Source: Promethearchaeota archaeon
GTDB taxonomy: Archaea > Asgardarchaeota > Lokiarchaeia > Sigyniarchaeales > SOKP01
Length of the DNA stretch: 44,226 bases
Assembly: GCA_048939015.1 (NCBI GenBank)
Contig: JBHLPW010000045.1
Coordinates: 1-44,226 of the forward strand
Reading direction: 5' to 3'
Under the pieces are notes generated by a model. The model made no database searches, was not told where the DNA came from, and worked only from the letters and a program-made list of their open reading frames with translations. Below, piece by piece: positions 8,746-31,503 of the stretch; position 1 is the first letter of the stretch, and every line of letters begins with the position of its first letter. Made by a program: the position numbers and the translations under genes.

Positions 8746-8752
8746 TGATAAT

Positions 8753-10074: not shown

Positions 10075-11781
10075 TTACCTAACAGATTTTATAGCTACCA
10101 ACTTCTTTTTTAGACCAATTTTCTGTTTCTCTCTAGATTGTTTCTCTCGTACTTTTCCATTTTCTGCTCCAGATTTTGCTAATTCATTCTTTAATTCTTC
10201 TGCCAGTACACCCAATTTATTTGCTGTAGCTGTTATTTCTTCCATTGAAGCAGTTTGTTGTTCTGATGAGGCACTAATACCTTCAAGTGCCCGTGAATTT
10301 TCCTCACCAGCTGCAGTTGTGGATTCAATGTCTTGAGTTATAGCTGCAATTAGTTCAACTGTAGATTGAATGCGGGTTGTAATATCCTTTACTTGTGCAC
10401 CTGTATCATCAGTAGCATTTTTAGATTCTTCAGCAAGTTTTCGAACCTCATCTGCCACTACAGCAAAGCCTCTTCCATATTCACCAGCTCTTCCTGCTTC
10501 AATACTGGCATTAAGTGCCAATAAATTCGTTTGATCTGAAATACTTGTTATTAGATCCATTATTCTATTGATATCTGTAGTTGATTTCATAATTTCATGG
10601 GAGAGATCATTGATATTACTTGACATTTTACTGATTTCTACAAGTGAATTAACTTGACTCTGAGTATTCATGGAAACCTCCTGAGTAGTAGAGGCGATTT
10701 CCTCTGAAGCAGCATTAACTTCACTCGCACTTGCAGCTAACTCTGTGGCCATATTTGAGACATTCACACTTGCATTCGATCCTGCTTTTAATATATTTTC
10801 CATGTTGTTAGTAACACCTGTGATACTTCTTACAGTTGGAACCGCTACAGCTATACCAAGCGCAATTGCTATTACTATAACAGCAACTATTACGATATAT
10901 GAAGTAGTTATTGCAGATCGCGCTGCTGCCTTATTTGCTTCAATATGAGTATCTACTTCCTGATCTAGAGCATTTAAATCTGCCACTAATTCATCAGCGG
11001 TGACATTTATTGTGTTGATATCTGCTTCCAGTTTGTCATAGTCATCAAAAACTCCGTGTCCGGGCTCAATTGCTAAATTTGAAAAGTTCACATGGTGAGT
11101 TTCTATCTCATCAAGAACATTTTCAATAGTCGTATTTCCAGTATAAAATGTAGCAATGTTATTAATACAACTATCGAACAAAGTTAAAGATGCGTTAAAC
11201 TCATTACGTGTTTCTTCATCTTGATTAGAAATATACTCATAAACGAAGAGCATTTGTTCGGCTATACACATTTTCATAAGTGAAGCATTTAGGTCCATTA
11301 CTGGATCTTCAATATATCCTAGTAAGATATTAATTTCTTCATCGATATGTTCATGTAATTCAAAGATCATATCTACATGCCCTAAAATTTCATCTTGATG
11401 AGCAAGTATTCCTTCAGTTCCATTAACGATGAATCCCATTATCTCTTCATGATGCTCTTCTAATTCATCGATTTCTAAGGTATACTCTGGAACCAATTGT
11501 TTTAATTCATCAGCATGTTCATCAAATTCTTCAGTTGCAGATATAATTTCAGTTCTTTGATGACTAGTATCTCCTCCTAAGTATTCCCACATTTCTCTCA
11601 AAGCATAATCCATATGAAATTTCATATCATTCATGATTTCCATTGCAATAGAATCTACATTAGCTAAATCAGTGTATCTTTGATCTAAATTATTAAGTTG
11701 AAAGAAGCTAACTCCTCCTAGCACGCATGTAAACGTAATTAAACATGCAAATCCTATTGTCATTCTTCTTCCTATATTCAT
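10075..11781 (-). CDS. Methyl-accepting chemotaxis-like receptor MCP1 (2 TM, helical extracellular domain, no obvious HAMP)
   Basis: [40 protein letters not shown] hairpin tip. Confidence 0.95.
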
Positions 11782-11925
11782 TTTTTTTAAATCCCTTCCT
11801 AAATATCACTGTTTATTGTAACATATAATTCACTTAACGAAAGGTTATAATTGCAAATCCCTTAATATTTACAATAAGTGAATTTTGATACAAAAAACTT
11901 CTTAACTTAGTAGTTTTAGCACAAT

Positions 11926-12033
11926 TATTTAAACTTTTTTTATTCAAACATTGTTCTTGAACGCGATAGTATGTAAAAAACTGCAGAAATTTATTCTTTT
12001 TTATGTAAATCAATATTTTTTTGTACAAAAAAA
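11926..12033 (-). promoter_or_regulatory. MCP1 promoter block (BRE/TATA plus upstream motifs)
   Basis: TATTTAAACTTTTTTTATTCAAA (11926-11948) is identical to 16921-16943. It is followed by ATGTAAA twice and the palindrome T7-GTAC-A7 (12016-12033). Confidence 0.75.
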
Positions 12034-12298
12034 CAATTAATTACAGTATTTAATAATTAGACGATAAAATTAGAGCATCTTAAAAATATTGGAAATAGTT
12101 TTTTTTACTGAATAAAACAGTAATTCAATAAATAATCTATTTTCTGTAAGCATAATTGGAATCTTCAAATTATCTTAAAAAAAATGTATAAATAGAAGTA
12201 ATATCTTTAACTTGTTGAAGTGTCTTCATTTGAGATTAAGATCTTAAATATAATTCATAAATAATTAACCAAAGCATTTTAGGAGGAGTTTTCACCTA

Positions 12299-13627
12299 AT
12301 GAATAAGCCAACCTTAAATTTATACAATAAATTTGCCAATTTGAAGGAAAAATTTATTGAAAACAGAATTGTAATTATTGCAATTATTATTTTTTTGATT
12401 TATTGGATTTTAGAGTCAATTATGGATACTTTTTTATTTCAATCCAATAAAAATTTTATAGAAAACCTATTTTTCTTAGAGATCCATGAAAGTTGGCATC
12501 GTTTTCTTATTTTTGGATTTTTCATTTTTATTGGGTTATATTCTCAAAATATAATTACAAGGAGGAAAAAAGCTGAACTAAAAATCATTGAATTAGCAAG
12601 ATATACATCTGAAAATCCAAATCCTATTTTGAGAATATCTAAAAATCAAATTGCATATATTAATGAAGTTGGTCAAGAACTATTTAATCTAAGTGAGAAT
12701 AGTGAAACCCCAAATTTTTTGCGAGAGAAAATAACAGATTCAATGAGTAAAGAGAAAAGAGAATTAGTTGAAGTAAAGTTTAAAGATCGATTTTATTCAT
12801 TTGTTATCTCACCAAATAAGGAAGCAGATTACACTAATATTTATGGAATGGATATTACAGAACGTAAAAAAGCAGAAGATTTAATTTTAGAAGAATATCA
12901 AAAATTATCAGAACTTAATCAAATGAGAAAAGATTTAATAATAAGAGTTTCTCATGAGTTAAAGACTCCTTTGAATGCAATTTATGGTGCTTCACAGAGA
13001 TTATTCGAGTATCATGAAAATCATCCCCATTCACATCTCAACAAATATGTAGAAATCATAAACAGAGGTGGGAATAGACTAAAAAATCTTATATCCAATA
13101 TAATTGATGCCTCAAAAATAGACTATAATAAAATGGAATTGAAAATGAAAAAAGAAAATTTGGTTGAACTTATTAAGGAATGTATTGAAGATTTGATTTT
13201 TTTTGCTAATGAAAGAAAAGTCTTTTTAAATATTAATCTCCCTCAAGAATTATTCATTAAAATAGATAAATTTAGGATTGAACAGGTTTTCACTAATATC
13301 CTATCAAATGCCATAAAAAATACTCCATCAGGGGGTTTGATTTATATTAGATTATTAGAAATGGATAAATCATTTGACATTTCTATAAAAGACACAGGGA
13401 TTGGCCTAACAAACGAAGAAATGAAGAAATTGTTTAAAAGATTTGGAAAAATTGAAAGATATGGAAGATCGTTGGGTGTAGATATTGAAGGTTCTGGATT
13501 AGGTTTATATATTTCCAATGAAATAGTCAAATTGCATAACGGTGAAATTCTGGTAAAATCAGAAGGGAGAAATAAAGGAGCTGAATTTACAATTAGATTG
13601 TATAAGAATCACTCAAGTAATAATTAA
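12299..13627 (+). CDS. Membrane-anchored class I sensor histidine kinase (2 TM, PAS-like, HisKA, HATPase)
   Basis: SHELKTPL H-box, NILSNAIK, DTGIG, EGSGLGL; SD AGGAGG. Confidence 0.95.
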   Translation: MNKPTLNLYNKFANLKEKFIENRIVIIAIIIFLIYWILESIMDTFLFQSNKNFIENLFFLEIHESWHRFLIFGFFIFIGLYSQNIITRRKKAELKIIELARYTSENPNPILRISKNQIAYINEVGQELFNLSENSETPNFLREKITDSMSKEKRELVEVKFKDRFYSFVISPNKEADYTNIYGMDITERKKAEDLILEEYQKLSELNQMRKDLIIRVSHELKTPLNAIYGASQRLFEYHENHPHSHLNKYVEIINRGGNRLKNLISNIIDASKIDYNKMELKMKKENLVELIKECIEDLIFFANERKVFLNINLPQELFIKIDKFRIEQVFTNILSNAIKNTPSGGLIYIRLLEMDKSFDISIKDTGIGLTNEEMKKLFKRFGKIERYGRSLGVDIEGSGLGLYISNEIVKLHNGEILVKSEGRNKGAEFTIRLYKNHSSNN

Positions 13628-13659
13628 TAATCAAAATCTAATAAAAATAGAGACTTTGT

Positions 13660-14508
13660 TCATTTTAAATGATTAAATATTGTTTCGAATTTAGAAAAAT
13701 CAAAAGGTTTCAAAAAGTAACCATTGGCTCCTGTTTCATTCATTTTTTCTTCGACTTCAGAATGTGGAACAGCTGTTATAAAAAAAATAGGCACTTTTTT
13801 CAGAGTATTCGATAACCTCATTTTTTTACATATTTCATATCCATCAATATCTGGAAGGAGTATATCAAGTAAAACTAATTTAGGAACATACCTGTACATT
13901 TCTTCAATCGCTTCTAAGCCAGATGTAAGATATTTACAGACATATCCTTTACCTCTAAAATAGTCAGTTAGTAAATTAATCGTTAAGAAATCATCTTCAA
14001 CAATCAGAATATCATACAAATTATTTTCGACATCAGATTTTTCTAAATCTTTGATAATTTTTTCTTCTAAAATTAGACTTTGATCATATATTGTTTTCAA
14101 TTTTAAAGCTATGTCCCAATCTAACTTATCTTTATAATTTTCCAACAAAATCTGTGAATACCCTTTAATTATTGTAAGAGATTCTTTTAAATCATGGGAT
14201 ATCTGAGAAATTGCTTTAAAGGAACGAGATTTCTCTTTTATCTCTATAAAAGAATTAACAGCTTCCCTTACAAGTTTTGAAATCGTTGGATAATCATAAT
14301 TTTTAATAAAATCTTGCCATTTTGATTTAGTTTCTTCAGAGACTAAAATCATTATTCTTTCTTTATTTTTTTCATAAATTTTTTCACCTTTTTGCCATTT
14401 TTTAAATCCCTCTGTTATCCGATCTCTCCAAATAGCAAATTTTCCTGTCTCTTTCTCATATTGTTCCATCTCTTTAGTTTTTTTCAAATTTCCTGAGATA
14501 AGATCCAC
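13660..14508 (-). CDS. Response regulator RR1: N-terminal micro-domain, RHH-like, HisKA (DHp only), REC
   Basis: RIMILVSEETKSKW...TISKLVREAV (RHH pattern); SHDLKESL (H-box); ILIVEDD, LLDILLP, FITA, LKPF (REC). Confidence 0.85.
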   Translation of the reverse strand: MDLISGNLKKTKEMEQYEKETGKFAIWRDRITEGFKKWQKGEKIYEKNKERIMILVSEETKSKWQDFIKNYDYPTISKLVREAVNSFIEIKEKSRSFKAISQISHDLKESLTIIKGYSQILLENYKDKLDWDIALKLKTIYDQSLILEEKIIKDLEKSDVENNLYDILIVEDDFLTINLLTDYFRGKGYVCKYLTSGLEAIEEMYRYVPKLVLLDILLPDIDGYEICKKMRLSNTLKKVPIFFITAVPHSEVEEKMNETGANGYFLKPFDFSKFETIFNHLK

Positions 14509-14811
14509 CCTATTATAATAATTGAGAACTTTTTTTAATTTAAACCTTTTAATTTGTTATTTTATGAATAAAATATCAAATCCTAAAGATTTGTTAACTT
14601 TTATCAATTGAATATAAAATATTTTATTTAGAAATTTTATATTAACGGAAATAAATTTTTATTCAAAAAAAATTTCTTTTTGAATAATATAAAATCACTC
14701 ATATTAAAAATTATTACAATTTCTATGAACCTATCTAAATCCATTTTAGATGATTGATCAATTATCTATACCCTTAAAATGTGATTCTATTTCTAAAAAA
14801 ATTAAAATTAA

Positions 14812-14843
14812 AAGGGGGTTATCTTTAAAAGATAAGCCCCCTT
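14812..14843. repeat. GC-cored inverted repeat (hairpin) between MCP2 and RR1
   Basis: AAGGGGG-TTATCTTT-A-AAAGATAA-G-CCCCCTT: 15 bp stem with one bulge. Confidence 0.7.
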
Positions 14844-14989
14844 AGGGATTTAAAAATTTAAGGGATTTGCTAATAAATTATATTATCATAATATTTTAAA
14901 CTAAAAAATTAAAAAGTTAAGTGGAATTTAATCCACAATTTAATTCTCATTATATTTTTTTAAAGGGGATATATAGATTTACACTTATA

Positions 14990-16750
14990 TCATTCTTCTA
15001 ATGATTCAGCCTGTCGAATAGTCTTTAAGACTGCTAGTTTCTTCTTAAATCCAGATTTCTCCTGCTTTTTGGGTAATTCAGTCGTACTTATTTTCTTTGT
15101 TTTTCCATTATCTCCTCCAGATTTTGCTAATTCATTCTTTAACTCTTCTGCTAGCACTCCTAGTTTATTAGCTGTAGCTGTAATTTCTTCCATTGAGGCA
15201 GTCTGTTGTTCTGAAGAAGCACTAATACCTTCAAGTGCTCGCGAATTCTCTTCTCCCGCTGCCGTTGTAGATTCAATGTCTTGAGTTATAGCCGCAATTA
15301 ATTCAACTGTAGATTGAATGCGGGTTGTTATATCCTTTACTTGTGATCCTGTATCATCAGTAGCATTTTTAGATTCTTCAGCAAGCTTTCGAACCTCGTC
15401 TGCCACTACAGCAAAGCCTCGACCGTGCTCACCTGCCCTACCTGCCTCAATACTTGCGTTTAAAGCTAATAAATTAGTTTGATCTGATATGCTTGTTATA
15501 AGATCCATGATTCTATTAATATCTGTGGTTGATTTCATGATTTCATGCGATAGATCATTGATATTACTTGACATTTTACTGATTTCTACAAGCGAATTAA
15601 CTTGACTTTGAGTATTCATGGAGACCTCTTGGGTTGTTGAAGCAATTTCTTCAGATGCTGCATTTACTTCACTAGCACTCGCCGCTAACTCTGTCGCCAT
15701 ATTTGAGACATTCACACTTGCATTTGATCCTGCTTTTAAAACATTCTCCATATTTTTTGTAACTCTTACAATCCCTCTAACCGTAGGAACTGCAATTACT
15801 ATCCCTAGAACTACTGCAATTACTATCACTGAAATGATAATTATATATGATGTAAAAATTGTTGATTGCGCATTAGCTTTATTTAATTCTATATGTTCAT
15901 CGACTTCATAATTCAAAACATCTAATTCTCCAACCACTCCTTCGAAGGTTGCATTAATCTCACCAATTTCGACTAATAAAGTATCATAATCTCCAAAAAT
16001 CCCGTGTTCTGTACCCTCTGAGTAGTCAGAAAAATTAACATGATGAAGTTCTATAAGATCCAGCAAATTTTCTATTGTGCTATTTCCAGAGTAAAAAGTT
16101 CTTATAGTATCAATACACGTATCAAATTCAACATTTGCAGCATCAAATTCATTAACAGTATCAGGATCTGGATTTGTGATATATTCATATACAAAAAGCA
16201 TCTGTTCAACAAGATACATTTTCATTATTGAAGCATTTAAATCCATCACCGGATCATTAACAAGTGCTAATAGTGTGTCTATATCGTCATCAACCTCTTC
16301 GTGTAATTCAAAAACGATATCGAGATGTTCTAAGATTTCATCTTGATGAGCCAAAATTCCTTCAGTATCATTTACAATATGACTTATAATAAAATCATGA
16401 TCAGCTATAATTTCTTCTATTTCAATAGAAAATTCAGGGAGTAAGTCTGCTAGTTCCTCTGCATGCAAATCAAATTCAGTTGCACGTGCATTTATTTCAT
16501 CCTGTTGATGAGAAACATCTCCCTCTAAATATTCCCACATTTCACGTAATACATAATCTATATCATATTGCAGATCCATCATTAATTCCATTGCAATTGA
16601 ATCTACATTAGCCAAATCTTTATATTCTTGATCTAAACTGTTTAATTGAGTGAAACTAATAACACCTAAAGCAACAGAAATGATCATAAGGCATGCAAAT
16701 CCAAATGTCATTCTTCTTCCAATATTCATATTTTTTCTCCTTATTTTCAT
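14990..16750 (-). CDS. Methyl-accepting chemotaxis-like receptor MCP2 (paralog of MCP1; start may be MNIGRR at 16729)
   Basis: Same hairpin-tip motif; collinear with MCP1 over its whole length. Confidence 0.95.
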
Positions 16751-16920: not shown

Positions 16921-17028
16921 TATTTAAACTTTTTTTATTCAAAAATTGTACGAGAGCCACGATATATGTAAAAAAAGTTGTGGAATTTTATCCTTTTTTA
17001 TGTAAAACTTTTCTTTTTATACAAAAAG
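16921..17028 (-). promoter_or_regulatory. MCP2 promoter block, homologous to 11926-12033
   Basis: Identical 23-mer with TATA; ATGTAAA at 16966 and 17000; CTTTTT-ATAC-AAAAAG at 17013-17028. Confidence 0.75.
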
Positions 17029-17229: not shown

Positions 17230-19137
17230 TTGCCACTAAATCAAAACCAAAATATTTCTGATTTATTGGAAAAACATAGTAAAAAGCAAATATCATTAGA
17301 CGATATTATTACGAAATATGTTAAACCTGGAAGTCGGATTTTTATCGATTCTGGTTGTGCTGAACCAATCGATCTTACTAAAAAATTAATTGAACTTGGT
17401 TTAAACCTTCCAGATATAGAGATATTACACTTTCTCAGTCTAAGTGATTTGGATTATTATGAAACTGCCGGTAGTATAGAAGATCTATTTAGGCATAATG
17501 CATTTTTCATTGGAAAATCACTTCGTAAATATGTTGAACTTGGTCAGGCAGATTATTCTCCAATGTTACTTTCGGAGATTCCGAGATTATTTAAATCTGG
17601 AATGATGCATTTAGATACTGCGTTAATTCAAGTGAGCTTACCTGATCAATATGGATTCTGTAGCTATGGGATTAATGTAGATATCGCAAAGCCAATAGCA
17701 GAATCTGCTGAATATGTTATAGCTGAAATCAATCCTAAAATGCCACGTACTTTGGGAGATTCTTTTATTCACATAAATGACTTAGATGCATTTGTTTTAA
17801 GTGATCATGATATTATTGAATTTAGTTATAGTGAACTCGATGAGGTTTCCATTAAAATAGCTAAGTTTGCCGCTTCTTTAATTGAAGATGAATCAACTAT
17901 TCAAATGGGAATCGGAGAAATTCCTAACGCAGTTACTAAGGAGTTGGTAGAAAAAAGGGATTTGGGGGTGCATAGTGAAGTATTTTCAGATGGAATTGTA
18001 GATCTTGTAGAAAAAGGTGTAATCACATGTAAAAAAAAGACACTTCACAAAGATAAGATTATATGCTCATTTGTTATGGGTTCTAAAAGATTATATGATT
18101 TTGTTGATGACAATCCTATGGTCGAATTTCATCCATGTGATTATACAAATGATCCATATATTATTAGCAAAAATAAGAAACAAGTAGCTATAAATGCCGC
18201 TTTAAGTGTTGATCTAACAGGTCAAGTGAATTCAGATTCTTTAGGTCACAGATTTTACAGTGGAATCGGTGGACAAGTTGATTTTGTAAGAGGGGCAGGA
18301 AGATCTATCGACGGAAAGCCTATTATGACTTTACCTTCTACAGCAACATTAAAAGATGGTACTGTGGTGTCAAGAATAGTTCCTTTCCTTCAACCTGGCT
18401 CTGGAGTAGTAATAACAAGAGGTGATATCCATTATGTAGTTACAGAATGGGGTATTGCTTATCTTTATGGAAAAAGTATTCGAGAAAGAGTACTTGAAAT
18501 GATAAATATAGCTCATCCTGATTTTCGGGAAGAATTATTAGACCATGCTAAAAAGTGGAAGTATGTATATTCAGACCAAAAGTTGCCCATTTCTATAGAT
18601 GGAAGGATAAGTATATATCCTGACAAATATGAAACTATATTAAAGCTTGAAAATGGAAAAACAATTAAAATCCGTCCTATAAAACCCACAGATGAGAGAT
18701 TAATCCAAGAACTCCATTATTCTTTGGATGATAAGGATAGATATCTAAGATTTTTCACTCCTGTCAAAGATTTCCGTCATAAGAAGATACAACCACTTGT
18801 AACAATTGATTATACTAATGATATGATTTTAGTGGCAGAAGTTCATGAAAAAGCAGAAGAACAAATTGTAGCTCTTGGAGCATTTTTTAAAACTATTCAA
18901 CCTTCTATTGGAGAGTTAGCTTTTGTTGTTCACACTGATTGGAGAGGACTTGGAATTACCAAGTTTTTATTAAACTATTTAGTCCAGATTGGAAAAGAAT
19001 TAAATTTCAGAACTTTTACAGGCTCTATTCTACTTGAAAATAAACCGATGCTTCACATTATTAACAACTCTGGATATTCACTTAATTTGAAAAGAATTGA
19101 AGGAAATGTTACAATTTTTGCTTTTGATCTTACCTAA
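17230..19137 (+). CDS. Acetyl-CoA hydrolase/4-hydroxybutyrate CoA-transferase fused to a C-terminal GNAT acetyltransferase
   Basis: IQMGIGEIPNAV, DLGVHSE (catalytic Glu), SGIGGQVDFVRGA, IAHPDFRE; GNAT part IRPIKPTD, YLRFF, ELAFVVHTDWRGLGI. Confidence 0.92.
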   Translation: MPLNQNQNISDLLEKHSKKQISLDDIITKYVKPGSRIFIDSGCAEPIDLTKKLIELGLNLPDIEILHFLSLSDLDYYETAGSIEDLFRHNAFFIGKSLRKYVELGQADYSPMLLSEIPRLFKSGMMHLDTALIQVSLPDQYGFCSYGINVDIAKPIAESAEYVIAEINPKMPRTLGDSFIHINDLDAFVLSDHDIIEFSYSELDEVSIKIAKFAASLIEDESTIQMGIGEIPNAVTKELVEKRDLGVHSEVFSDGIVDLVEKGVITCKKKTLHKDKIICSFVMGSKRLYDFVDDNPMVEFHPCDYTNDPYIISKNKKQVAINAALSVDLTGQVNSDSLGHRFYSGIGGQVDFVRGAGRSIDGKPIMTLPSTATLKDGTVVSRIVPFLQPGSGVVITRGDIHYVVTEWGIAYLYGKSIRERVLEMINIAHPDFREELLDHAKKWKYVYSDQKLPISIDGRISIYPDKYETILKLENGKTIKIRPIKPTDERLIQELHYSLDDKDRYLRFFTPVKDFRHKKIQPLVTIDYTNDMILVAEVHEKAEEQIVALGAFFKTIQPSIGELAFVVHTDWRGLGITKFLLNYLVQIGKELNFRTFTGSILLENKPMLHIINNSGYSLNLKRIEGNVTIFAFDLT

Positions 19138-19227
19138 ATTAAATATTATAAGTATAGATATTTTTTATAAACCAAAATTTCTTTTTCTTATAGATGTTAG
19201 ATCATCTTAGTTTTTAATTATCAATTT

Positions 19228-20112
19228 TTGATGTCTAAAATTAGTGAAAATATATTCATTACTGACTTCTATAAACTTTATAAAAAAGTAGGATTAGCCC
19301 TAGAAATTATTCAATCATTCCAGAAAATAATTTATGATTATTATAGAAATCATAAGAGGAAATTTCCTTTTAGAGAGAATATCACACCTTATAATGTTTT
19401 AGTTTCAGAAATTATGCTACAACAAACACAAACAAGAAGAGTAGTAGAAAAATTCTTAAAATTTACAAAGAAATTTCCAGATTTTTTAACTTTATCTCAA
19501 GCTCCACTGGATTTAATTCTTAAAGAATGGAAAGGCTTAGGTTATAATAGGAGAGCTATAGCTTTAAAAAAGATTGCAGAAATCGTTGTTAATGAATATG
19601 AGGGAAAACTTCCAGAATCTTTAGAGATATTGAAATCTTTCCCACAAATAGGACATAATACCGCATCTTCCATCATAACTTTTGTCTTTAATAGACCAAC
19701 GATCTTTATTGAGACGAATATAAGAAGAGTTTATATTTATTTCTTCTTTCCTAAGAAAAATAATGTAAATGACAAAGATATTTTGCCAATATTGAAAAAA
19801 ACAGTTGATAAAACCAAACCTCGAGATTGGTATTACGCACTTATGGATTACGGCGTAATGCTAAAAAAAGCATATCCGGATCTAAATAAGAGAAGTTCTC
19901 ATTATCGAAAACAAGCCCCGTTTAAAGGATCTTCGAGGCAAATAAGGGGACAAATTCTAAAAATGTTAATTTCAAATGTTAAGATGGAAATCACTGAGAT
20001 TAGCAATAAAATAAAAAATGTTGAATTAAATAGAATAAAATCTATTCTTTTTCAATTAGAGAAAGAAGGTTTTGTAGAAATAACAGGTAATCAAGCTAAA
20101 ATTGTTGATTAA
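19228..20112 (+). CDS. mutY: A/G-specific adenine glycosylase, short form without the Fe-S cysteines
   Basis: TPYNVLVSEIMLQQTQ, WKGLGYNRRA, FIETNIRRV, ALMDYG. Confidence 0.88.
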   Translation: MMSKISENIFITDFYKLYKKVGLALEIIQSFQKIIYDYYRNHKRKFPFRENITPYNVLVSEIMLQQTQTRRVVEKFLKFTKKFPDFLTLSQAPLDLILKEWKGLGYNRRAIALKKIAEIVVNEYEGKLPESLEILKSFPQIGHNTASSIITFVFNRPTIFIETNIRRVYIYFFFPKKNNVNDKDILPILKKTVDKTKPRDWYYALMDYGVMLKKAYPDLNKRSSHYRKQAPFKGSSRQIRGQILKMLISNVKMEITEISNKIKNVELNRIKSILFQLEKEGFVEITGNQAKIVD

Positions 20113-20114
20113 TT

Positions 20115-21416: not shown

Positions 21417-21598
21417 AAAAATGTATATTTTGGTAATTAAATCTTTTATATTACATTAATTTTTAAATTAAATTTATGATTCGTTATTTTATAATAATAT
21501 ACTCATGAATTATGGACTCCCATGATTATTTATTTTATTTTTTTTATTATTAATTTATGAAATTTAAAAAAAATTAAAAGTGTAAAAAGGAGTGCTCA

Positions 21599-22063: not shown

Positions 22064-22100
22064 TTTTTTTTTTATTTTTATTGTCTACGTACTTTGAACT

Positions 22101-22865
22101 ATGGTTGATCTTAGAAATTATCTTGAATGTAAGGCAGGTAATATTCCTTTAATTATATCTGTTCCACATGGAGGATTGTTTGATTGTACTAGTATTCCAC
22201 GAAGACAAATTGGGATTCTAGGTATTGATAAAGGAACGATAGAATTTTCTAAAAATCTTATAAACCATATTAATCAGAAATTTAAAAATGAATTATCAAA
22301 AGATAAAGTTCCTTCTTATATTTACTCTAAGGTTCCGCGTAATAAATTAGACTTGAACCGTAATAAGGCTTTAGCATATAATCAAAATTCCTTCCTTGCC
22401 AGAGAAATATATAATTATTATCATTATAAAATTAAGGAATGGATATTAGGTAATGTAAAGACGTTCAATCGATCATTATTGATCGATATTCATGGTTTTG
22501 AAAGTGACAAACGGCCCTCTGGATTTCGAGATGTTGATGTAATTTTAGGCACAAATAATTTAGCATCTTTATTTTATGAACCAGTTCCTAAGAGGAATTG
22601 GGGAAAAAACATCCGTGGAAAAATCATTCAAAAATTTCTTGATATTAATATTCCTATAGCTCCAGGACATCCGAGAAGAAGAGAGTACGTTTTAACAGGA
22701 GGGTACATAACACGAACATATGGTGCGGTAAATATCCCAAAAAGTCAAACAATCCAAATTGAACTTTCTGATAGAATCAGAATGTATGACGAAGAATTAA
22801 AAGATGAGGTTATTATATTACTAACTGATATTTTTTTTGAAGAATTAAAGTATTTCCTAGATTAA
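22101..22865 (+). CDS. N-formylglutamate amidohydrolase family protein
   Basis: LIISVPHGG, LDLNR, LLIDIHG, TGGYITRTYG, IQIEL. Confidence 0.85.
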   Translation: MVDLRNYLECKAGNIPLIISVPHGGLFDCTSIPRRQIGILGIDKGTIEFSKNLINHINQKFKNELSKDKVPSYIYSKVPRNKLDLNRNKALAYNQNSFLAREIYNYYHYKIKEWILGNVKTFNRSLLIDIHGFESDKRPSGFRDVDVILGTNNLASLFYEPVPKRNWGKNIRGKIIQKFLDINIPIAPGHPRRREYVLTGGYITRTYGAVNIPKSQTIQIELSDRIRMYDEELKDEVIILLTDIFFEELKYFLD

Positions 22866-23485
22866 ACTTTGTCTTTTGAGGAGATGATTAGCTTAACTAT
22901 TCGATTTATAAACTTGCTTTTTTGAATTTTACAAATATGAGCAACTTTGTTATAATTGAAAGATTCTGCTAATGTATCAAGATAAGATATATTATATAAA
23001 ATAGAAATATTATTATCATTTCTCATGAACAATGTATCAATCGCATTTTGAAGCTTGTGTTCACTCATTTTTGATTTCTTTAATACTCGTCTTTTTATCT
23101 CCCTGATAGATTCTCCAAAATTAAGATCTCGAATACTTGAAATAAGAGAATTTAAAACGAGAGAATATATTATGACCATATTAATGTTTTCAGCTTCTTT
23201 CAGTGTTTCAAATTTAAGTTGAAGGTCCTGATATATTTCTCTTATATAATTTTCGTCCATCCCTTTTATTTTTTTAAAAAGACTAAGAAATTCAAGATAT
23301 TTACCTTCAATGAATAATTTCAAATTCTGATTAAATAAATCTTTAAACTTCCTAATTATTTGTCCCGAATTGCTTATCTTTAATGAAACTTCAGGTGTTC
23401 TACCAATAATTAAGTCTTGACCTCCAGCATAAAACTGTTGATTTATTAAATTATCGGTTGCATTATATAATTGCTTTAAACGCAC
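22862..23485 (-). CDS. Hypothetical protein
   Basis: 207 aa ORF; SD-like AGGTG upstream; no motif recognised. Confidence 0.7.
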   Translation of the reverse strand: MRLKQLYNATDNLINQQFYAGGQDLIIGRTPEVSLKISNSGQIIRKFKDLFNQNLKLFIEGKYLEFLSLFKKIKGMDENYIREIYQDLQLKFETLKEAENINMVIIYSLVLNSLISSIRDLNFGESIREIKRRVLKKSKMSEHKLQNAIDTLFMRNDNNISILYNISYLDTLAESFNYNKVAHICKIQKSKFINRIVKLIISSKDKV

Positions 23486-23797
23486 GCTTATTATAAAACA
23501 CCTATTACCAAAATTTGTCGATATTTATCCTAACCAAACTATAAAAACACCATGTTTTAATTTTTTGCTTTTACACTTAAATTTTCTTACGTATGGTTTT
23601 AAGAGAAAATATTATGAGTATATCATACTTTTTGATTTTAAATTCAACCAACTAATATATTCAATCGCTTTTTATTCAGTTTATCAAAAAAAAGAAATAA
23701 AACCTTTTTATATCATTATAACCTTTTAATATTGTTATTTTATGTAATATATTTTTAAATAATTCTTAAAAATAAGTGTTAAAATTACAAAAGAAGG

Positions 23798-24244
23798 TTG
23801 AAAATTAAAATGGTTGACGAAGATTTATTAAAGAAAATTAAATCAGCTCAAGATGCTGGAGCGTCCGCAGCATCAGTAGAGGAATTAAAACTGATGTATG
23901 AATTTGTTAAGCAGATCTCGACTGAAAACGAGGATCTGAAAGAAGAACTCGAAGATATGGACATAGCCATAAGTCAGATATTAACAGATGTTGATAAGAA
24001 GTACTGGCTAACAGTTAAAGAAGGAGACTTGGAATATGGAGAGGGGGATGTTGATAATCCTTCATTCACGATGTCTTCCACACTCGAAGTAGGAGCTGGT
24101 ATTCTTATGGGAGAAGTAGATGCAACTTCTGCATATATGGCAGGAGATATTACAGTTGAAGGAAATCTTCAAGATGCTATGGCATTTCAGGAAATTATCG
24201 AGCTAGCATTAGAAGCATATGAAGATTTAGCCGAAGATTTATAA
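23798..24244 (+). CDS. SCP2 sterol/lipid-binding domain protein, acidic (start likely ATG 23810)
   Basis: GEVDATSAYMAGDITVEGNLQDAMAF. Confidence 0.88.
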   Translation: MKIKMVDEDLLKKIKSAQDAGASAASVEELKLMYEFVKQISTENEDLKEELEDMDIAISQILTDVDKKYWLTVKEGDLEYGEGDVDNPSFTMSSTLEVGAGILMGEVDATSAYMAGDITVEGNLQDAMAFQEIIELALEAYEDLAEDL

Positions 24245-24391
24245 GTAACTTAAGTTAACCTCTCTATTCAACGTATTACATTTATACATTTCTTTTTTTT
24301 TATTATCTTTGTTATTATTTTAGTTAATGATTGTTTTTCTTAATTATAGAAGTAGATTTAATGATCTAATTAAGGAAATTTTAAAATAAAA

Positions 24392-24469
24392 TGGCGCGGC
24401 TAGCGGGATTTGAACCCGCGTCGCAGGAGTGACAGTCCCGAATGCTAGACCGGGCTACACTATAGCCGC
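24392..24469 (-). tRNA. tRNA-Asp (GTC), CCA encoded
   Basis: Reverse complement GCGGCTA...CGGGA-CT-GTC-AC-TCCTG...GGTTCAAATCC...TAGCCGC-G-CCA folds as a cloverleaf. Confidence 0.96.
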
Positions 24470-24675
24470 AATTTCAAAAGAGAAGTAATATATTTTTTAT
24501 TATAATAAATTTATATTCTCAGAATAGTAAATAAAGGAAAATATAAAAATTTTATTCCTTTCAGCTTTTAAACACCTAATAGAAACATTTAAATGCTTTA
24601 AAGATGATGTAGATAATAAGGAATATTTAGGTATAACAATATTATATATTTGAATTAGTATCAAGATTAGACAGT

Positions 24676-25113
24676 ATGCTCAATTCAAAAAGCTACAGTT
24701 CTGTTATTCATTCTTTGGAAAATCATGATGGGGAATTTATTGCAATTCTAGAAAAAATCATAAAATTTGCTGTTAACAAGTTCAATAGTACTGAAGAATT
24801 ACGAGATGAGATTTTAGATTTTGATGATATATATCAAATCATAGTAACTGATGTAAATTTTAACTTTTGGCTAAAAGTTTCTAATGGTTCAATACTATAT
24901 AGAAAAGGGATTAATAGAAGTGAATCAGTTAAAATTATATACACTAAAGATATATTTGTTAGAAGTCTAAAGTGTGAGATGTCTGGAATTGATGCTTTTA
25001 TGAAAGGAATAATAAAAGTTGATGGAGATCTTTCTCAAGGATTAAGATTTACAAAATTATTTCGATTATTTATGAAATATCTAAATAATGGTTTTCAAAA
25101 AGAAGATCTTTAA
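24676..25113 (+). CDS. SCP2 domain protein, second paralog
   Basis: MSGIDAFMKGIIKVDGDLSQGLRF. Confidence 0.82.
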   Translation: MLNSKSYSSVIHSLENHDGEFIAILEKIIKFAVNKFNSTEELRDEILDFDDIYQIIVTDVNFNFWLKVSNGSILYRKGINRSESVKIIYTKDIFVRSLKCEMSGIDAFMKGIIKVDGDLSQGLRFTKLFRLFMKYLNNGFQKEDL

Positions 25114-25320: not shown

Positions 25321-27231
25321 CTATTTAAATAATCTTACTGTAAATAGAGCGCCCTTATGCCGTCCTTCTGATTCGACGAGGATCTGACCACCATGTAAAT
25401 CAATAATTTCTTTTGAGATATATAATCCCAGACCAGATCCTTCAATATCAACCCCTAAATCCATTCCATAGTGTTCAATTTTACCAAATTTCTCAAATAA
25501 CAGCCCTTTTTCTTCTTTAGTTATACCTATTCCCATATCCTTTATTTTAATATCAACTTGATTTTGATTTTCAAGAAGATCTACATAAATCGAACCATTT
25601 TTGGGAGTATTTTTTATCGCATTTGATAAAATATTAGTAATCACTTGTTGAAGTCTAATTTTATCAACATTCAAACAGGTTTCTTCAGGCAATTCTAAGT
25701 GTATCGTTTGATTACGATTATTAGCGAAATAATTCATGTCCTCAACACATTCTCTCACTATTTTGATAATATTTTCATTGCTTAATCTCAAATCCAATTT
25801 TCCAGTTTCTATTCTGGAAGCATCAATTAGATTTTCTACTAGTTTTTTTAATCTTAAAGCCCCCCTATGAAAAATTTCTATGAAACTTAATACATCATCA
25901 TCAATTTTCTCAATAAGATGTTTTAGAAGTATCTGAGATGCCCCATACATTGAAGTTAAAGGTGTTTTTAACTCATGAGAGACTCGTGTTATTATGTCTT
26001 TTCTCATCTTATTGAGTTCTAGTAGTTTTTTATTTTCTTCAAGAATAAGCCTTTGTGCTTCAATTTTTTCAGAAATATCTAATGTTGCCACTAAATCTGC
26101 CAGCATTCCTTCAAAAGTTATTGTTTTAGAAATTATTTCCAACCAAATTGCTTTTCCTGTTTTTTTAATAACCCTGAATTGAAGATTTGCTAAAACTCCA
26201 TCGGTACCATAATATTTTTCTTCTGCCAAGATTTGGACCATTTCTCTATCTTCTGGATGGATAATCTGAAAGAATTCTCTTGGTTTCCATCTTAGAATCT
26301 CATCAGATGAAAAGCCTAAAGTATCTGAGAATTGTTTATTAACATATTTAAAGGTAAAATCCTGTAAAATAGCAATTCCAATGAATGATTGTTCTGTAAT
26401 CGTTCTGAATTTTTCTTCAGATTCTATTAAATTTTGTTCAGAAAGTTTTCGATCGGTTACATTTTCAACTATAACTTGAACAGAATTCACATCTCTTAAC
26501 TTTATCGGAGATACATGCAAGAGAGTCCAAATTAAACTTCCATCCTTCTTTATCAATTGAATTTCCTTTGGAACAGGAGTTTCTCCATTGTATAATTTCT
26601 TAAAGCCATACATAATCAAGGGAAGGTATTCTTGAGGAACAATATTTAGTTCAAGGAAATTTTTTCCTTTCATTTCCTCCTTTTCATATCCAAAAATTTC
26701 TTTAACATAGGAATTGCATTCTAAAAAAGTACCATTTAAGTCCATTAGGGCTATTGCAAAAGGAGAATGTTCGAACAGACAGCGAAATTTTTCTTCTGAT
26801 TCCTTTAATTTTAATTCAGAATTCTTCCTTGAGGTAATATCGTCAAATACAGTAATGAATTCCCCTTTTCTAGGGGAAATTACTGAAATTTTGAAATGAG
26901 ATTCTATTGGCGGAAAATATGTTTCAAAAGTAACTGATTCCTGTGTTTCTGCTACTTTTGAATATATTTCTATATATGGCGCTTTATCGAGATTATATAC
27001 TTTTGTTGCAGTTTGATTTATTACATTTTCTTTTTTAATATTCAGAATTTTTTCGTATTGGGGATTTACATCTGTGATAATGTAATTTACTGGATTTCCT
27101 AAAATGTCATAGACAACTTTATGGTAAGCAATTCCACTAGTTGAATTATTAAATAAAACTTGAAAGGTCGTTTCAAGATAATTCTTTTTGGTTTTTTGTT
27201 CTAATTCTTGCATTAAAAATACCTTAACCAT
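25321..27231 (-). CDS. Cytoplasmic multi-PAS class I histidine kinase (3 PAS, HisKA, HATPase)
   Basis: ESEEKFR linkers, IIHPEDRE, SHELKTPL, NILSNAIK, EGSGLGL; kinase core closely similar to 12299-13627. Confidence 0.95.
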   Translation of the reverse strand: MVKVFLMQELEQKTKKNYLETTFQVLFNNSTSGIAYHKVVYDILGNPVNYIITDVNPQYEKILNIKKENVINQTATKVYNLDKAPYIEIYSKVAETQESVTFETYFPPIESHFKISVISPRKGEFITVFDDITSRKNSELKLKESEEKFRCLFEHSPFAIALMDLNGTFLECNSYVKEIFGYEKEEMKGKNFLELNIVPQEYLPLIMYGFKKLYNGETPVPKEIQLIKKDGSLIWTLLHVSPIKLRDVNSVQVIVENVTDRKLSEQNLIESEEKFRTITEQSFIGIAILQDFTFKYVNKQFSDTLGFSSDEILRWKPREFFQIIHPEDREMVQILAEEKYYGTDGVLANLQFRVIKKTGKAIWLEIISKTITFEGMLADLVATLDISEKIEAQRLILEENKKLLELNKMRKDIITRVSHELKTPLTSMYGASQILLKHLIEKIDDDVLSFIEIFHRGALRLKKLVENLIDASRIETGKLDLRLSNENIIKIVRECVEDMNYFANNRNQTIHLELPEETCLNVDKIRLQQVITNILSNAIKNTPKNGSIYVDLLENQNQVDIKIKDMGIGITKEEKGLLFEKFGKIEHYGMDLGVDIEGSGLGLYISKEIIDLHGGQILVESEGRHKGALFTVRLFK

Positions 27232-27710
27232 TATCCCGAATATCTTAGAAAAGTTACAATTATATTTTCCTACTCGCCAATAATTTTAGAGAATCTAATT
27301 TAACTCAAAAATACTATATGATCGGTTAAATAATTTAAATTTCTGTTGTACCGAGAATTAAAATCGTTAATATATTTTATAATAATTAAAAAAAAAATAT
27401 CAATTTTATATAATCTTACATAACTTTACAAAATTTTGATATTTAAATCTATTTCTTTTTTGATTTTTCTATTAAGCCGTAAGGTTGATTTCATAAATAT
27501 TTCTTGAAAAATCCCACTTTTTAAAGCATTAATTTGATGTATTTTTTTGTACATAATATCTCAAAAAATGGTGTAAAAATAAATGTTTATATACAAAAAT
27601 TTTTATTAATTATAAAAAAGTTCTATTAAAGTTATTTTATGAATATTGGCTGAAAGGGATTTAACTTTTATAGATTACTTTAGAAAAAACGTTTTGGAAG
27701 TGATTAATAA

Positions 27711-28025
27711 ATGCCTAGTTTAGAAATAAATGAATTAACAGTTTTAATAATTTTAGCTATTCCAGTAGCTTTTTCTCCATACCTTTTAAAGAAGAGGAGG
27801 GACATCATGAAGTGGTTTCCGGGGTATTATTGCATTTTTATAACTTTTCTATCTACAAACTTAGAAGCAGCAATTTTACCCGATACTTTCAACTTCATGG
27901 AGCACTTTTTTGCTATGATGGCAGGGATTTTATTCTGTGTTGCAGCATTTTATGAATACTACAGTAAGGTTATAAAAGGGAAAGAAATCAAACTTAATAT
28001 CAAAAAAAAGTCGGTGAGTAATTAA
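27711..28025 (+). CDS. Small 3-TM membrane protein, putative partner of MCP3
   Basis: Three hydrophobic segments; its TAA directly abuts the MCP3 ATG in the same frame. Confidence 0.75.
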   Translation: MPSLEINELTVLIILAIPVAFSPYLLKKRRDIMKWFPGYYCIFITFLSTNLEAAILPDTFNFMEHFFAMMAGILFCVAAFYEYYSKVIKGKEIKLNIKKKSVSN

Positions 28026-28856: not shown

Positions 28857-29023
28857 TTCAATTATTAGGAGTTAATATTTTTAACCTAATTTTTTTTTTC
28901 TTCTTTTTAATAACAATTTTATTCATTTTTCAAATAGTATTAAATTTTAGGTAAAAAAAAAAATATAAATATGTAAAACCTAATAAATATCTATAAAAAG
29001 TACTAATTATAATCTAATTAAAG

Positions 29024-29917
29024 GTGGGCAATATCCCTAATGATTTAAAAAAAACTAAAGAAATGGAAGACTTTGAGATAAAAACCGGGAAGAGGGCTAT
29101 TTGGCGTGGAAGTGTTACAGAAAGCTTTAAAAAATGGCAGAAAGGTAAAAATGATTTCGATGTAGATAAGGAAAGAATTTCATTATATGTATCGAAAGAT
29201 ATTAAAGAAGAGTGGCTGAATTTTGCTAACAGTAATGATTATTCTACTTTATCAAAATTAATTAGAGAAGCTTTGAAATTCTTTATTGAATATAAGTCTA
29301 AAATTACAATTAAAGATAAAAAAGTTGATATAGATCTTCTTTCTATTTTATCACATGATTTAAAGGAACCTTTAACTTCTATTAAAGGGTATTTACAGCT
29401 TATTATTGAATCCTATGGAAAAAATATAGAAGATAAGTTATTATCAATAATAAAAAATGTTTTAAGTCAATGTTCAGTCCTAGAAAACAAAATAGTTAAC
29501 TATTTAGATACATTTGAAACAAATAGAGAAGTTGAAATCGAGGAGATGGTTAAATATGATTTATTATTAATTGAGGATGATATCGAAACGGTCAATCTTC
29601 TATCCAGTTATTTCGAATCATTAGGAATCTCATGTAAAGGCGTTTCAAGTGGTTTTAAAGGGCTAAAGGAACTGAAAAAAAGACAACCCAAACTTATTTT
29701 ACTTGATATTATTTTACCAGATATTAATGGTTATGAGTTTTTGAAGAGAGTTAAAACGGATAGTAAGTTAAAGAAGATCCCGGTATTTTTCTTAACAGCA
29801 ATTCCTCGAGTAGAGATAGAAGAAAAAATTCAAGATTTAGGTGCCACCGGTGCAATTTTAAAACCATTTAATTTATCTGATTTTGAAGTTATTCAGAAAT
29901 ATCTAACTGATACATAA
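29024..29917 (+). CDS. Response regulator RR2, same architecture as RR1
   Basis: KTGKRAIWRGSVTESFKKW; RISLYVS...TLSKLIREAL; SHDLKEPL; LIEDD, LLDIILP, FLTA, LKPF. Confidence 0.85.
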   Translation: MGNIPNDLKKTKEMEDFEIKTGKRAIWRGSVTESFKKWQKGKNDFDVDKERISLYVSKDIKEEWLNFANSNDYSTLSKLIREALKFFIEYKSKITIKDKKVDIDLLSILSHDLKEPLTSIKGYLQLIIESYGKNIEDKLLSIIKNVLSQCSVLENKIVNYLDTFETNREVEIEEMVKYDLLLIEDDIETVNLLSSYFESLGISCKGVSSGFKGLKELKKRQPKLILLDIILPDINGYEFLKRVKTDSKLKKIPVFFLTAIPRVEIEEKIQDLGATGAILKPFNLSDFEVIQKYLTDT

Positions 29918-30165
29918 GAGAGTATTTATCTTTTATATTATATAGGCTGTAATTTCTTATTTCTTAAAAAGAATAAAAAATCAATTAAAAAATCGAAAAA
30001 ATATATAATCTTATAGATTTCCACTAAACTAAAAAATTTAAGTACTAATAATTTTATTTGTTATCAAAAAGAATGCTATTTGATCAAAAAATAAATTTAA
30101 ATAGTAGAATTATAATATTTTTATTAACACAAAACTAACATTTTGTACAAAAATTTTACCGATCT

Positions 30166-30987
30166 ATGATTATTTTAAATGAAAACCAATATAATATAAT
30201 GGAAAATTTCCAAAAGTTTCAATTAAGAGGCTTTTCTGTTTCAGAGATTAATACTGAGGGATATATTGAGATTATATTCCAAAAAGGAATTGGAATTTCT
30301 CTTACAACTAAAATTATTGATCTATATAGGGAATCTTTTGTTAATAGAAGACAGGGATATATTAACGATACTATAGGCAATCTTACAGTATATATTCACT
30401 TTTTTGAAAAAGAGAATAATAGTAAACTCATAATAATGTATATAGATAAGATAGAGAATTTAATGAATTTCACAGAACTTTATCATTTATCAAAAAGAAT
30501 ATATGATGGTATAAATCCTAATATTTCTAAAACAGAAGTTAGAAAAATATGTGATAAATTAGTTGATATTCCCATAGCAAAAGGAATTGTAGGTTTATTT
30601 ATTATAGATAAAGCAGGATTTTTGTATTTTTCAAAGGTAAATAAAGATAGAGAATATATGGCTAACAATAATTTCCAAATAGCGGGTTTTATTTCAGCAA
30701 TTTTAATTTATTCTCAGGACTTTATTGCCGGAGGGGAATATGGTTTAAAACTTACAGATATAAATCTTGGAAATGGGTGTCAAATGTTTATAAAAACCAA
30801 GCAAAATGTCATTTTCGCATATATAGTCGAAAAACCAAATTGTTCAGAAAATATCAAAAGATATATGCAATTACTAGTAGAAGAGTTCTTATTTAGGTAT
30901 TATTCATCATATGTAGTTGGGTTTAATGGAGATTTAGCTCCTTTTCACAGTTTTGAGGAAGTAATTGATCGGTATTTTGAAATATGA
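30166..30987 (+). CDS. Longin-like domain protein (possibly tandem longin)
   Basis: C-terminal half GLFIIDKAGFLYFSK...IAGFISAILIYSQ...VIFAYIV...EEFLFRY...FNGDLAPFHSFEEVI follows the longin beta-beta-alpha-beta-beta-beta-alpha pattern. Confidence 0.65.
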   Translation: MIILNENQYNIMENFQKFQLRGFSVSEINTEGYIEIIFQKGIGISLTTKIIDLYRESFVNRRQGYINDTIGNLTVYIHFFEKENNSKLIIMYIDKIENLMNFTELYHLSKRIYDGINPNISKTEVRKICDKLVDIPIAKGIVGLFIIDKAGFLYFSKVNKDREYMANNNFQIAGFISAILIYSQDFIAGGEYGLKLTDINLGNGCQMFIKTKQNVIFAYIVEKPNCSENIKRYMQLLVEEFLFRYYSSYVVGFNGDLAPFHSFEEVIDRYFEI

Positions 30988-31146
30988 CTGATTTTTTTAA
31001 TATATTTTAGATAATTAGTAAATTATTCATATCAACATCCCCATAATAGTTTTAACTATAAAGTCATAATATATATCAATGTTTCATGTATAAACTACAA
31101 AATGTACCTAAAATTATAAATTAGAAAACCAATAAATTATATCATA

Positions 31147-31503
31147 ATGACTGCAACACTTCAGCTTGATTTAGTATTAGATACATTAATAAAAGAATTA
31201 GGTGAGTCTGGATTATATTTTATACTCATTACTTCCGAAAATGGTGCTGTCATAAAATCTCACATCAATCAAGAATTTAATAAGTCATCAATAGGTTTGA
31301 ATATGTCGCAATTATACGAATTGGCTGAAGAAATAACGACAGAAATCGGAGTTCATAGCCCAGATTTCAATGTAATTCATTCAGATAACTTTTATATTCT
31401 TTCAATTAAAATTTTAGAAAATATAATTATCCTACTTACTGAGGATCAAGTTGATTTCTCTACTGTTTTTGAAATAATAAATAGGTGCATAATTACCAAT
31501 TAA
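31147..31503 (+). CDS. Roadblock/LC7 domain protein
   Basis: 118 aa; helix, then FILITSENGAVIKS, helix and three strands. Confidence 0.7.
   Translation: MTATLQLDLVLDTLIKELGESGLYFILITSENGAVIKSHINQEFNKSSIGLNMSQLYELAEEITTEIGVHSPDFNVIHSDNFYILSIKILENIIILLTEDQVDFSTVFEIINRCIITN

Follow-up and report, generated by a model that had tools for sequence, protein, structure and literature searches.

Environmental sensing in Asgard archaea, and the routes that lead there from signals to gene expression, are poorly understood, and archaeal response regulators rarely carry DNA-binding outputs. An architecture of ribbon-helix-helix (RHH), HisKA and receiver (REC) domains, with an RHH of the Arc type, has been listed for four proteins, GC14_75 being among the sources (Galperin et al. 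2018, J Bacteriol, PMC5847659). Two regulators of this kind, RR1 and RR2, are encoded on contig JBHLPW010000045.1 of a Promethearchaeota archaeon (GenBank assembly GCA_048939015.1), each of them close to genes for chemoreceptors (methyl-accepting chemotaxis proteins, MCPs) and for a class-I histidine kinase. They share with the listed regulators both the domain order, with a predicted RHH, a HisKA-type dimerisation and histidine phosphotransfer (DHp) hairpin without ATPase, and REC, and the lineage (Lokiarchaeia/Promethearchaeota), and are members of that group. PMC5847659 makes no mention of kinase partners, of MCP or GTPase neighbours, of subfamilies or of the 35-aa micro-domain described below. 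The two gene clusters, hereafter modules 1 and 2, are read here, with confidence somewhat better than even, as two-component systems whose RHH output acts on genes nearby, in this case those of the chemoreceptors.

As in the classical two-component systems of the OmpR/PhoB and NarL types, a HisKA/HATPase_c kinase stands beside a REC-containing, predicted DNA-binding protein that probably regulates its neighbours. Unlike in those systems, the output is N-terminal and REC is C-terminal, a predicted RHH takes the place of a winged helix or helix-turn-helix, a DHp-like dimerisation hairpin is built in, and instead of sharing an operon, kinase and regulator genes mostly converge. Cognate two-component pairs are normally co-transcribed, and convergence is unusual. 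Chemosensory pathways with non-motility outputs are known from Wsp in Pseudomonas and from Che3/CrdA and Frz in Myxococcus xanthus, which have their own CheA and CheW in the cluster. The present modules resemble these in linking receptor genes to response regulators with non-flagellar outputs and, as in Frz-MglA/MglB, roadblock-type proteins and Ras-like GTPases belong to the same gene sets; they differ in having a class-I kinase and neither CheA nor CheW. In Asgard archaea, two-component signalling has been reported to be fused or linked to longin/roadblock domains, the fusions involving NPRL2-like longin domains (Liu et al. 2020 preprint, 10.1101/2020.10.19.343400). Similarly, two genes of this type, orf273 and orf118, adjoin the two-component pair of module 2, and a regulator subfamily adjoins Arf/Rag-like GTPases; the preprint deals with domain fusions, does not contain the word ‘chemotaxis’ and leaves this regulator family unmentioned. 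No report of the MCP linkage, of context-specific subfamilies or of an association of che, longin and GTPase genes was found in the literature searched, the coverage of which is incomplete and leaves novelty unproven. The first-pass annotation had proposed an undescribed system; the architecture itself was already listed in 2018, and it is the MCP linkage of the regulators that appears undescribed.

The window, that is the whole stretch of DNA analysed, is an entire contig of 44,226 b (C22) of a 4.86 Mb genome (labelled G000) in 125 contigs, with about 28 % G+C and 94.9 % completeness. C-numbers denote contigs of this genome, other G-numbers the genomes of relatives, and L-numbers loci. Gene identities in the window come from Pfam scans, and the genes of the two modules are as follows.

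10075–11781, − strand: MCP1, membrane-spanning chemoreceptor of 568 aa that combines a four-helix-bundle sensor with an MCP signalling domain (MCPsignal 1e-34, 4HB_MCP_1 2e-8)
12299–13627, + strand: HK1, class-I sensor histidine kinase (HATPase_c 7e-23, HisKA 1e-13) with two transmembrane (TM) helices, 17–35 and 69–87
13660–14508, − strand: RR1, regulator with a 35-aa Trp micro-domain, an RHH-like domain, a DHp-like hairpin without ATPase, and REC (REC 5e-21)
14990–16750, − strand: MCP2, 586-aa paralog of MCP1, directly upstream of RR1 and co-oriented (MCPsignal 3e-35)
25321–27231, − strand: HK2, cytoplasmic PAS-PAS class-I histidine kinase (PAS_9 5e-24, HisKA 3e-13, HATPase_c 1e-22)
27711–28025, + strand: orf104, small 104-aa membrane open reading frame (ORF) resembling the N-termini of single-ORF MCPs on C9 and C2
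28026–28856, + strand: MCP3, 276-aa short membrane chemoreceptor directly upstream of RR2 (MCPsignal 4e-33)
29024–29917, + strand: RR2, RHH-DHp-REC regulator of the MCP-associated subfamily (REC 7e-19)
30166–30987, + strand: orf273, tandem longin/roadblock protein, paralog of the first gene in the family's che operon
31147–31503, + strand: orf118, probable Roadblock/LC7 protein (Robl_LC7 E 0.032, below the cut-off)

The two clusters of MCP, class-I kinase and RHH-DHp-REC regulator that had been recognised in the first-pass annotation were borne out, with three MCPs, two kinases and two regulators identified by Pfam. Its reading of the gene order was likewise correct: both HisKA-type kinases, HK1 and HK2, are divergent from an MCP unit (for HK2, the orf104/MCP3 unit), and an MCP lies directly upstream of, and co-oriented with, each regulator (MCP2 with RR1, MCP3 with RR2). 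HK1 and RR1 are arranged tail to tail, with 32 nt between their 3′ ends (13627/13660). MCP1 and MCP2 are 73 % identical. TM segment prediction gave none for HK2. The region between the modules (17230–25113) is occupied by unrelated metabolic genes.

Co-localisation of the three gene types, which the first-pass annotation had proposed to quantify, was counted after phmmer searches of all ORFs of the genome. The RHH-DHp-REC type is represented by 10 full paralogs among about 3,986 genes, alongside 21 MCPs and 28 class-I kinases. An MCP is an immediate neighbour of 6 of the 10 regulators, a kinase of 6 and both of 5; a class-I kinase lies within the module for 7 of the 10, and the 6 MCP-adjoining regulators account for 7 of the 21 MCPs. 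No gene-label shuffle (0/20,000) reached 6 MCP, 6 kinase or 5 double neighbours, a figure that overstates the significance, as paralogous modules are not independent. Because paralogs within one genome are not independent, recurrence in other genera is the more telling evidence. In a second genus (G209) the orders HK<>MCP-MCP-RR and MCP,MCP,HK,MCP<>RR are found, and in a third (G220) HK,HK-> <-RR<-MCP. Synteny of MCP, regulator and kinase thus extends over three genera; a lack of conserved synteny in relatives, together with a complete che system elsewhere in the genome, had been named in the first-pass annotation as evidence that would speak against its proposal. In G195 and G192, which belong to the genus of this genome, module 2 is kept in the same order, with MCP3 orthologs 86–90 % identical. 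The site of module 1 in these two genomes is occupied by one long MCP, with no kinase or regulator. This long MCP, MCP1 and MCP2 are about 72–76 % identical to one another, and gain of module 1 in this genome cannot be told from loss in its kin.

The tail-to-tail arrangement also recurs. Five of the 10 regulators here face a class-I kinase in this way, their 3′ ends overlapping or at most about 30 nt apart (the window pair 13627–13660 and pairs on C51, C99, C112 and C41), and relatives show the same arrangement at L008, L009, L016, L018, L023, L030 and L034, where the gap ranges from a few nt to about 50. Transcripts of such convergent genes may overlap at their 3′ ends. Three further MCPs (C2:45654–47218, C64:51279–52837 and C96:1684–3453) have a single-domain receiver gene 6–66 nt downstream, forming MCP-REC mini-operons; taking these together with the RHH-DHp-REC cases, a REC gene adjoins about half of the 21 MCPs.

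A class-I kinase with both HisKA and HATPase_c stands beside the regulator and the arrangement is conserved in relatives, as is characteristic of a cognate pair. In the reading favoured here, the kinase would sense a signal, HK1 by its small membrane/extracytoplasmic segment and HK2 by its cytoplasmic PAS domains, and would phosphorylate the receiver Asp of the adjoining RHH-DHp-REC protein. The DHp-like hairpin would keep the regulator dimeric, as the RHH fold requires for DNA binding, and phosphorylation of the C-terminal REC would alter the seating of the RHH pair on operators in the long intergenic regions nearby. The regulator may in this way set transcription of its own module and of the adjacent MCP genes, the direction of the effect and the sites bound being conjectural; in module 2 the downstream longin/roadblock genes are probably regulated as well. 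The receptors themselves would signal as usual through the single CheA/CheW/CheY set of the genome, such that the module would select which receptors are present rather than carry the receptor signal.

That set is located elsewhere in the genome. C108 encodes a 270-aa protein, CheW, CheY and a full CheA (Hpt-P2-dimerisation-HATPase-CheW) and ends inside the next gene; CheB is on C77, CheR on C34 and a CheR-CheD fusion on C90. The CheW-CheC and CheC proteins of the usual cluster were not found in this genome, in which C108 ends inside the cluster. The absence of che genes from the 44 kb, as first annotated, was upheld: whole-genome searches for CheW, CheR and CheB domains gave no match on the window contig, and CheW-domain matches were also absent beside every MCP-regulator module. 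A cluster with a CheA and CheW of its own, as in dedicated chemosensory systems, is therefore not what is seen here. In a sample of 46 genomes of the family, 18 have MCPs and 17 have CheW-domain genes, all of the 17 being among the 18, and none of the 28 genomes without MCPs has a CheW-domain gene; the single genome with MCPs and no CheW is 69 % complete. The kinase-binding hairpin tip is essentially identical in all 21 MCPs, whether regulator-linked or not. Given the che genes on other contigs, the joint presence of MCPs and CheW across genomes, and the common tip, the receptors almost certainly use CheA and CheW. They are not orphans, as a full che set is present. The che-independent pathway in which they had first been placed is not supported, in view of CheA, CheW, CheY, CheB and CheR in the genome, MCP-CheW co-occurrence in 17 of 18 genomes and a single tip; of the two findings named from the start as jointly counting against it, the che system elsewhere in the genome is present, whereas synteny is conserved. 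Of the two options offered at the time, the data agree best with the other, in which the receptors form the regulon of a two-component pathway.

The regulators themselves are of a distinctive build. HisKA is matched by RR2 at 31.0 bits (E 2.6e-7), above the Pfam cut-off of 26.9 bits, and by RR1 at 22.9 bits (E 9e-5), below it; neither matches HATPase_c in Pfam. An AlphaFold2 (AF2) model of RR1 (ma1971d4c812d, predicted local distance difference test (pLDDT) 82) has an N-terminal helix-hairpin-helix, an unstructured strand segment and then a helix; a further, long helix runs from the RHH into DHp helix 1 and is followed by DHp helix 2 and REC. The two long DHp helices span residues 76–124 and 131–156, with REC directly after. 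A profile of 24 N-termini matches four solved RHH proteins (2k9i, 3gxq, 6x0a and 5ceg) weakly at positions 47–95 (E 0.16–1.7) and in the right register, and the RHH-like segment is among the best-conserved parts of the protein (K49, R51, W64, S77 and R81). In REC, D215 and K267 are invariant in 41 homologs, T245 is T or S and the acidic pair is nearly invariant. A Foldseek search with the whole RR1 model gave receiver domains as its top matches; receiver domains alone were returned, and this search was set aside as uninformative about the N-terminus. Both RR1 and RR2 start with the 35-aa Trp micro-domain (ETGKxAIWRGxxTEGFKKWxKGEK; window 14370–14480, residues ~10–45 of RR1), which is absent from four paralogs that keep the RHH.

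The long intergenic regions of the modules contain candidate operators. The palindrome TTTTGTACAAAA, with at most one mismatch, occurs five times in the window against 0.96 expected, and four of the five sites (12019, 17015, 27545 and 30141) are within module intergenic regions. A second palindrome precedes RR1. The sites, to which no strand is assigned, are listed here.

12019–12030: exact TTTTGTACAAAA in the divergent intergenic region between MCP1 and HK1, preceding MCP1 by 238 nt and HK1 by 269 nt
14660–14686: palindrome TATTCAAAAA-N7-TTTTTGAATA, about 150–180 nt upstream of RR1, unique in the genome in this form
17015–17026: variant TTTTATACAAAA, 265 nt upstream of MCP2
27545–27556: variant TTTTGTACATAA in the divergent HK2/orf104 intergenic region
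30141–30152: exact TTTTGTACAAAA, 14 nt upstream of orf273

Related sites (at most one mismatch) are located 223 nt (G195) and 244 nt (G192) upstream of the orthologous long MCP. Genome-wide there are 30 intergenic TTTTGTACAAAA sites, of which 7 are upstream of MCP units, 1 of the che operon and 1 of orf273. When upstream regions of at least 200 nt were scored, sites with at most one mismatch preceded 6 of 20 MCP genes versus 19 of 1,525 other genes (Fisher p 3e-7); when the present window, the source of the motif, was excluded, 4 of 18 MCP genes remained (p 1e-4). Control palindromes with other G/C-containing cores showed no such enrichment behaviour. In relatives, TTTTGTACAAAA-type sites are found about 75 nt upstream of three regulator genes, in three genomes, of the Hdr clade described below. 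The 19 non-chemotaxis genes below TTTTGTACAAAA sites were considered as a regulon and rejected, being of assorted kinds (among them radical SAM, sulfatase, AMP-binding, PAP2 and glycosyltransferase) and probably background. The palindrome TATTCAAAAA-N7-TTTTTGAATA is a candidate autoregulatory operator, and its half-site TTATTCAAA is also present upstream of MCP1 (~11940) and MCP2 (~16935). A genome-wide scan for TTCAAA-N-TTTGAA palindromes yielded no regulon, only the site upstream of RR1 standing out. The 10–12-mers common to 16 module intergenic regions were mostly A/T runs and were discarded, and a palindrome census requiring at least two G/C per arm found none. Both palindromes are leads for binding rather than proof of it.

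The regulator family has more than 1,000 database relatives, annotated merely as ‘response regulator’. A query made of the N-terminal part and DHp detected regulators in 39 of the 40 sampled genomes from the taxonomic family to which this one belongs, and almost nowhere else in a 201-genome sample of the phylum. The regulator-bearing genomes include some with no MCP or che genes, and because it is present in genomes without MCP or CheW the regulator family is independent of the receptors. A quick IQ-TREE maximum-likelihood tree of the regulators, with SH-like approximate likelihood ratio test (SH-aLRT) values as its sole support measure, divides them into subfamilies. An MCP clade (SH-aLRT 96), which includes RR2, has 8 of its 9 members adjoining an MCP and spans two genera and both short and long receptor types. 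Members of a GTPase clade (SH-aLRT 100) immediately follow, in several genera, a gene that encodes an Arf/RagA-like GTPase (Pfam; about 490 aa), as at L009:8751–10223, L012:6379–7875 and C116:152–1645. Further clades have Hdr-like/FlpD neighbours (L014 and L015) or consist of tandem pairs. RR1 groups more loosely with the MCP-linked copies of C51 and G220 and with kinase-only copies, and the linked module L030 of G220, from the third genus, is placed outside the MCP clade, in another clade. Subfamilies that track the type of neighbour are to be expected where regulators act locally on target genes beside them. Among the best 80 loci of a contig search, 59 hold a conserved tandem regulator pair and 11 the tail-to-tail order of regulator and kinase (R>H<); dominated by the tandem pair, these loci are a poor sample of the MCP-linked subfamilies. 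With these results a lineage-specific family of predicted DNA-binding regulators gains a kinase partner, candidate targets (chemoreceptors, small GTPases and Hdr-like genes) and a candidate operator.

Several observations weigh against control of neighbouring receptor genes by these regulators. The tandem pair, comprising the most conserved and most widespread members of the family, has no kinase or MCP nearby. No RHH family was matched in RR1 or RR2 by Pfam at E ≤ 0.01, the assignment to RHH comes from weak sequence matches, and DNA binding by this domain is itself predicted from sequence. Retention of the DHp His hints at a phosphoryl-transfer or phosphatase role that the model does not need. 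As to the operators, the TTTTGTACATAA site is not conserved in the G195 ortholog, and of the site upstream of orf273 the right half, CACAAAA, is alone kept in G195 and G192. Furthermore, TTTTGTACAAAA is also found upstream of MCPs without an adjacent regulator, three regulator-linked MCPs (C51, C99 and C101) are without it, and a different factor could bind it. Lastly, the failure to find archaellin or CheF leaves room for a closer tie between receptors and regulators.

Such a tie, with the regulators as che outputs, is the main rival: CheA would phosphorylate the REC of the receptor-adjacent RHH-DHp-REC protein, and the class-I kinase would be a second input or a phosphatase. Searches for archaellin in 46 family genomes and for CheF in this one came up empty, which is in its favour, as are the MCP directly upstream of and co-oriented with the regulator in three modules and the frequent pairing of MCP and REC genes, including those on C2, C64 and C96. 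It is nevertheless considered unlikely, given that genomes devoid of che genes also contain the regulator family with its kinase partner, that the che cluster has CheY genes of its own, and that the gaps between MCP and regulator are 167–481 nt long and contain their own conserved promoter-like block. More direct still would be signalling from the adjacent receptors to the class-I kinase or to the DHp bundle of the regulator, bypassing CheA and CheW. The tight three-gene linkage kept in three genera would suit this, and the DHp-like four-helix bundle may broadly resemble the dimerisation domain under receptor tips; linked and unlinked receptors have identical tips, however, MCPs without CheW are confined to the one incomplete genome, HK1 and HK2 have sensor parts of their own, and no precedent for an MCP driving a HisKA kinase is known to us. 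Direct signalling is accordingly rated very improbable.

Two other explanations dispense with either the DNA-binding role or the functional link. The protein could be mainly a phosphorelay or phosphatase component, its DHp His taking part in His-Asp transfer (split-kinase or Spo0B-like) and its N-terminus binding protein rather than DNA. The H-box SHxLKEPL is shared by every one of the 10 copies here and by 34 of 41 homologs, and the micro-domain occurs on a leucine-rich repeat (LRR) protein and a 396-aa family in the manner of a mobile interaction module. The other 7 of the 41 homologs, otherwise intact, have Y, R or Q in place of the His, whereas no homolog departs from the REC Asp; the RHH-like segment is highly conserved and, as noted, outlasts the micro-domain in four paralogs. 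A mainly relaying protein seems quite unlikely. About equally doubtful is the idea that adjacency is without meaning, signalling genes having accumulated in variable regions and whole blocks having been duplicated. This genome does have the most regulator copies (10–11 versus 1–6 in its kin), paralogous modules do not count as independent events, and G195 and G192 have no module 1 at the corresponding site. Against chance accumulation, the MCP clade of regulators spans two genera and both short and long receptors, the L030 module of G220, from a third genus, falls in another clade of the tree, and no gene-order shuffle came near the observed counts. Local transcriptional control of receptor genes by a kinase-regulator pair remains the preferred reading.

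Beyond the receptors, module 2 connects to a wider gene set. In an AF2 model of orf273 (m1f5d0dc6de7c, pLDDT 82) there are two longin/roadblock domains, and structural matches (VIA) of both halves include MglB, the Sec22b longin, TRAPP and a Lokiarchaeal Roadblock-Longin protein at Z 11–12; residues 14–135 and 137–273 align over 100–128 residues at Z 10.5–12.2 and a root mean square deviation of 2.4–3.5 Å. The protein is 40 % identical to C108:3807–4619, the 270-aa protein encoded upstream of cheW-cheY-cheA. The nearest Atlas clusters of orf118 are Roadblock/LAMTOR2 (score 0.94), the gene is kept after the orf273 ortholog in G195 and G192, and it probably encodes a Roadblock protein. Of the 17 che-positive genomes sampled, 14 have a member of the orf273 family directly upstream of cheW. 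The core of the family's che cluster consists of LonginX, CheW, CheY, CheA, a DUF11 protein, an unknown 278-aa protein, a CheW-CheC fusion and an unknown 189-aa protein, and a Roadblock-Ras GTPase fusion is found inside the cluster in four genomes of three genera. The che-cluster loci are L003 (C108) 3807–4619, L036 (G209:C3) 335–14950 and L060–L069. A relationship between the orf273 family and the 278-aa protein was considered and dropped, as hhalign showed none.

Neither part of the archaeal motor link of canonical chemotaxis was found: archaellin (PF01917) was matched in 0 of 46 family genomes, in a search that divergent archaellins could escape, and CheF (PF04283) had no match in this genome at 94.9 % completeness. 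A small-GTPase switch is a reasonable candidate for the output of the che system in this family. The lack of a detected archaellum, together with longin/roadblock and Ras-like GTPase genes in the che operon, raises the question of what chemosensing controls in relatives of the eukaryotic ancestor. Module 2 carries paralogs of the longin/roadblock genes of the che operon. It is tentatively suggested, as a proposal more doubtful than probable, that the che network feeds a small-GTPase switch instead of a rotary motor, with the MCP-kinase-regulator modules as its transcriptional arm. If so, the closest prokaryotic relatives of eukaryotes would use environmental sensing to direct polarity, membrane or cytoskeleton behaviour through GTPases, much like Frz-MglA/MglB of Myxococcus. 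A fusion of a Ras-like GTPase and a NikA-like RHH (272 aa) is encoded directly upstream of the CheR gene (L058, C34:3513–5549).

Some smaller features of the modules were also apparent. The boundary between orf104 and MCP3 is an in-frame TAA (28023–28025) followed at once by ATG, and orf104 is apparently the detached N-terminal membrane part of MCP3. The same two pieces are present in G195, overlapping and in different frames, and each of the related MCPs on C2, C9 and C99 is encoded by one ORF; the split may reflect either a conserved two-piece receptor or repeated decay. Two blocks of about 45 nt, one upstream of RR2 (28960–29010, AAAATxTAxATATGTAAAACCTxxTAAATATxTATAAAAAG) and one upstream of orf104/MCP3 (27575–27625, ATGTTTATATACAAAAATxTTTATTAATTATAAAAAA), are near-identical in three species (L021 and L022 orthologs) while their flanks have diverged, and are longer than TATA/BRE elements need. 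The Trp micro-domain also heads the LRR protein and the conserved protein of about 396 aa mentioned above (L027:4706–6037; C20:10717–11895).

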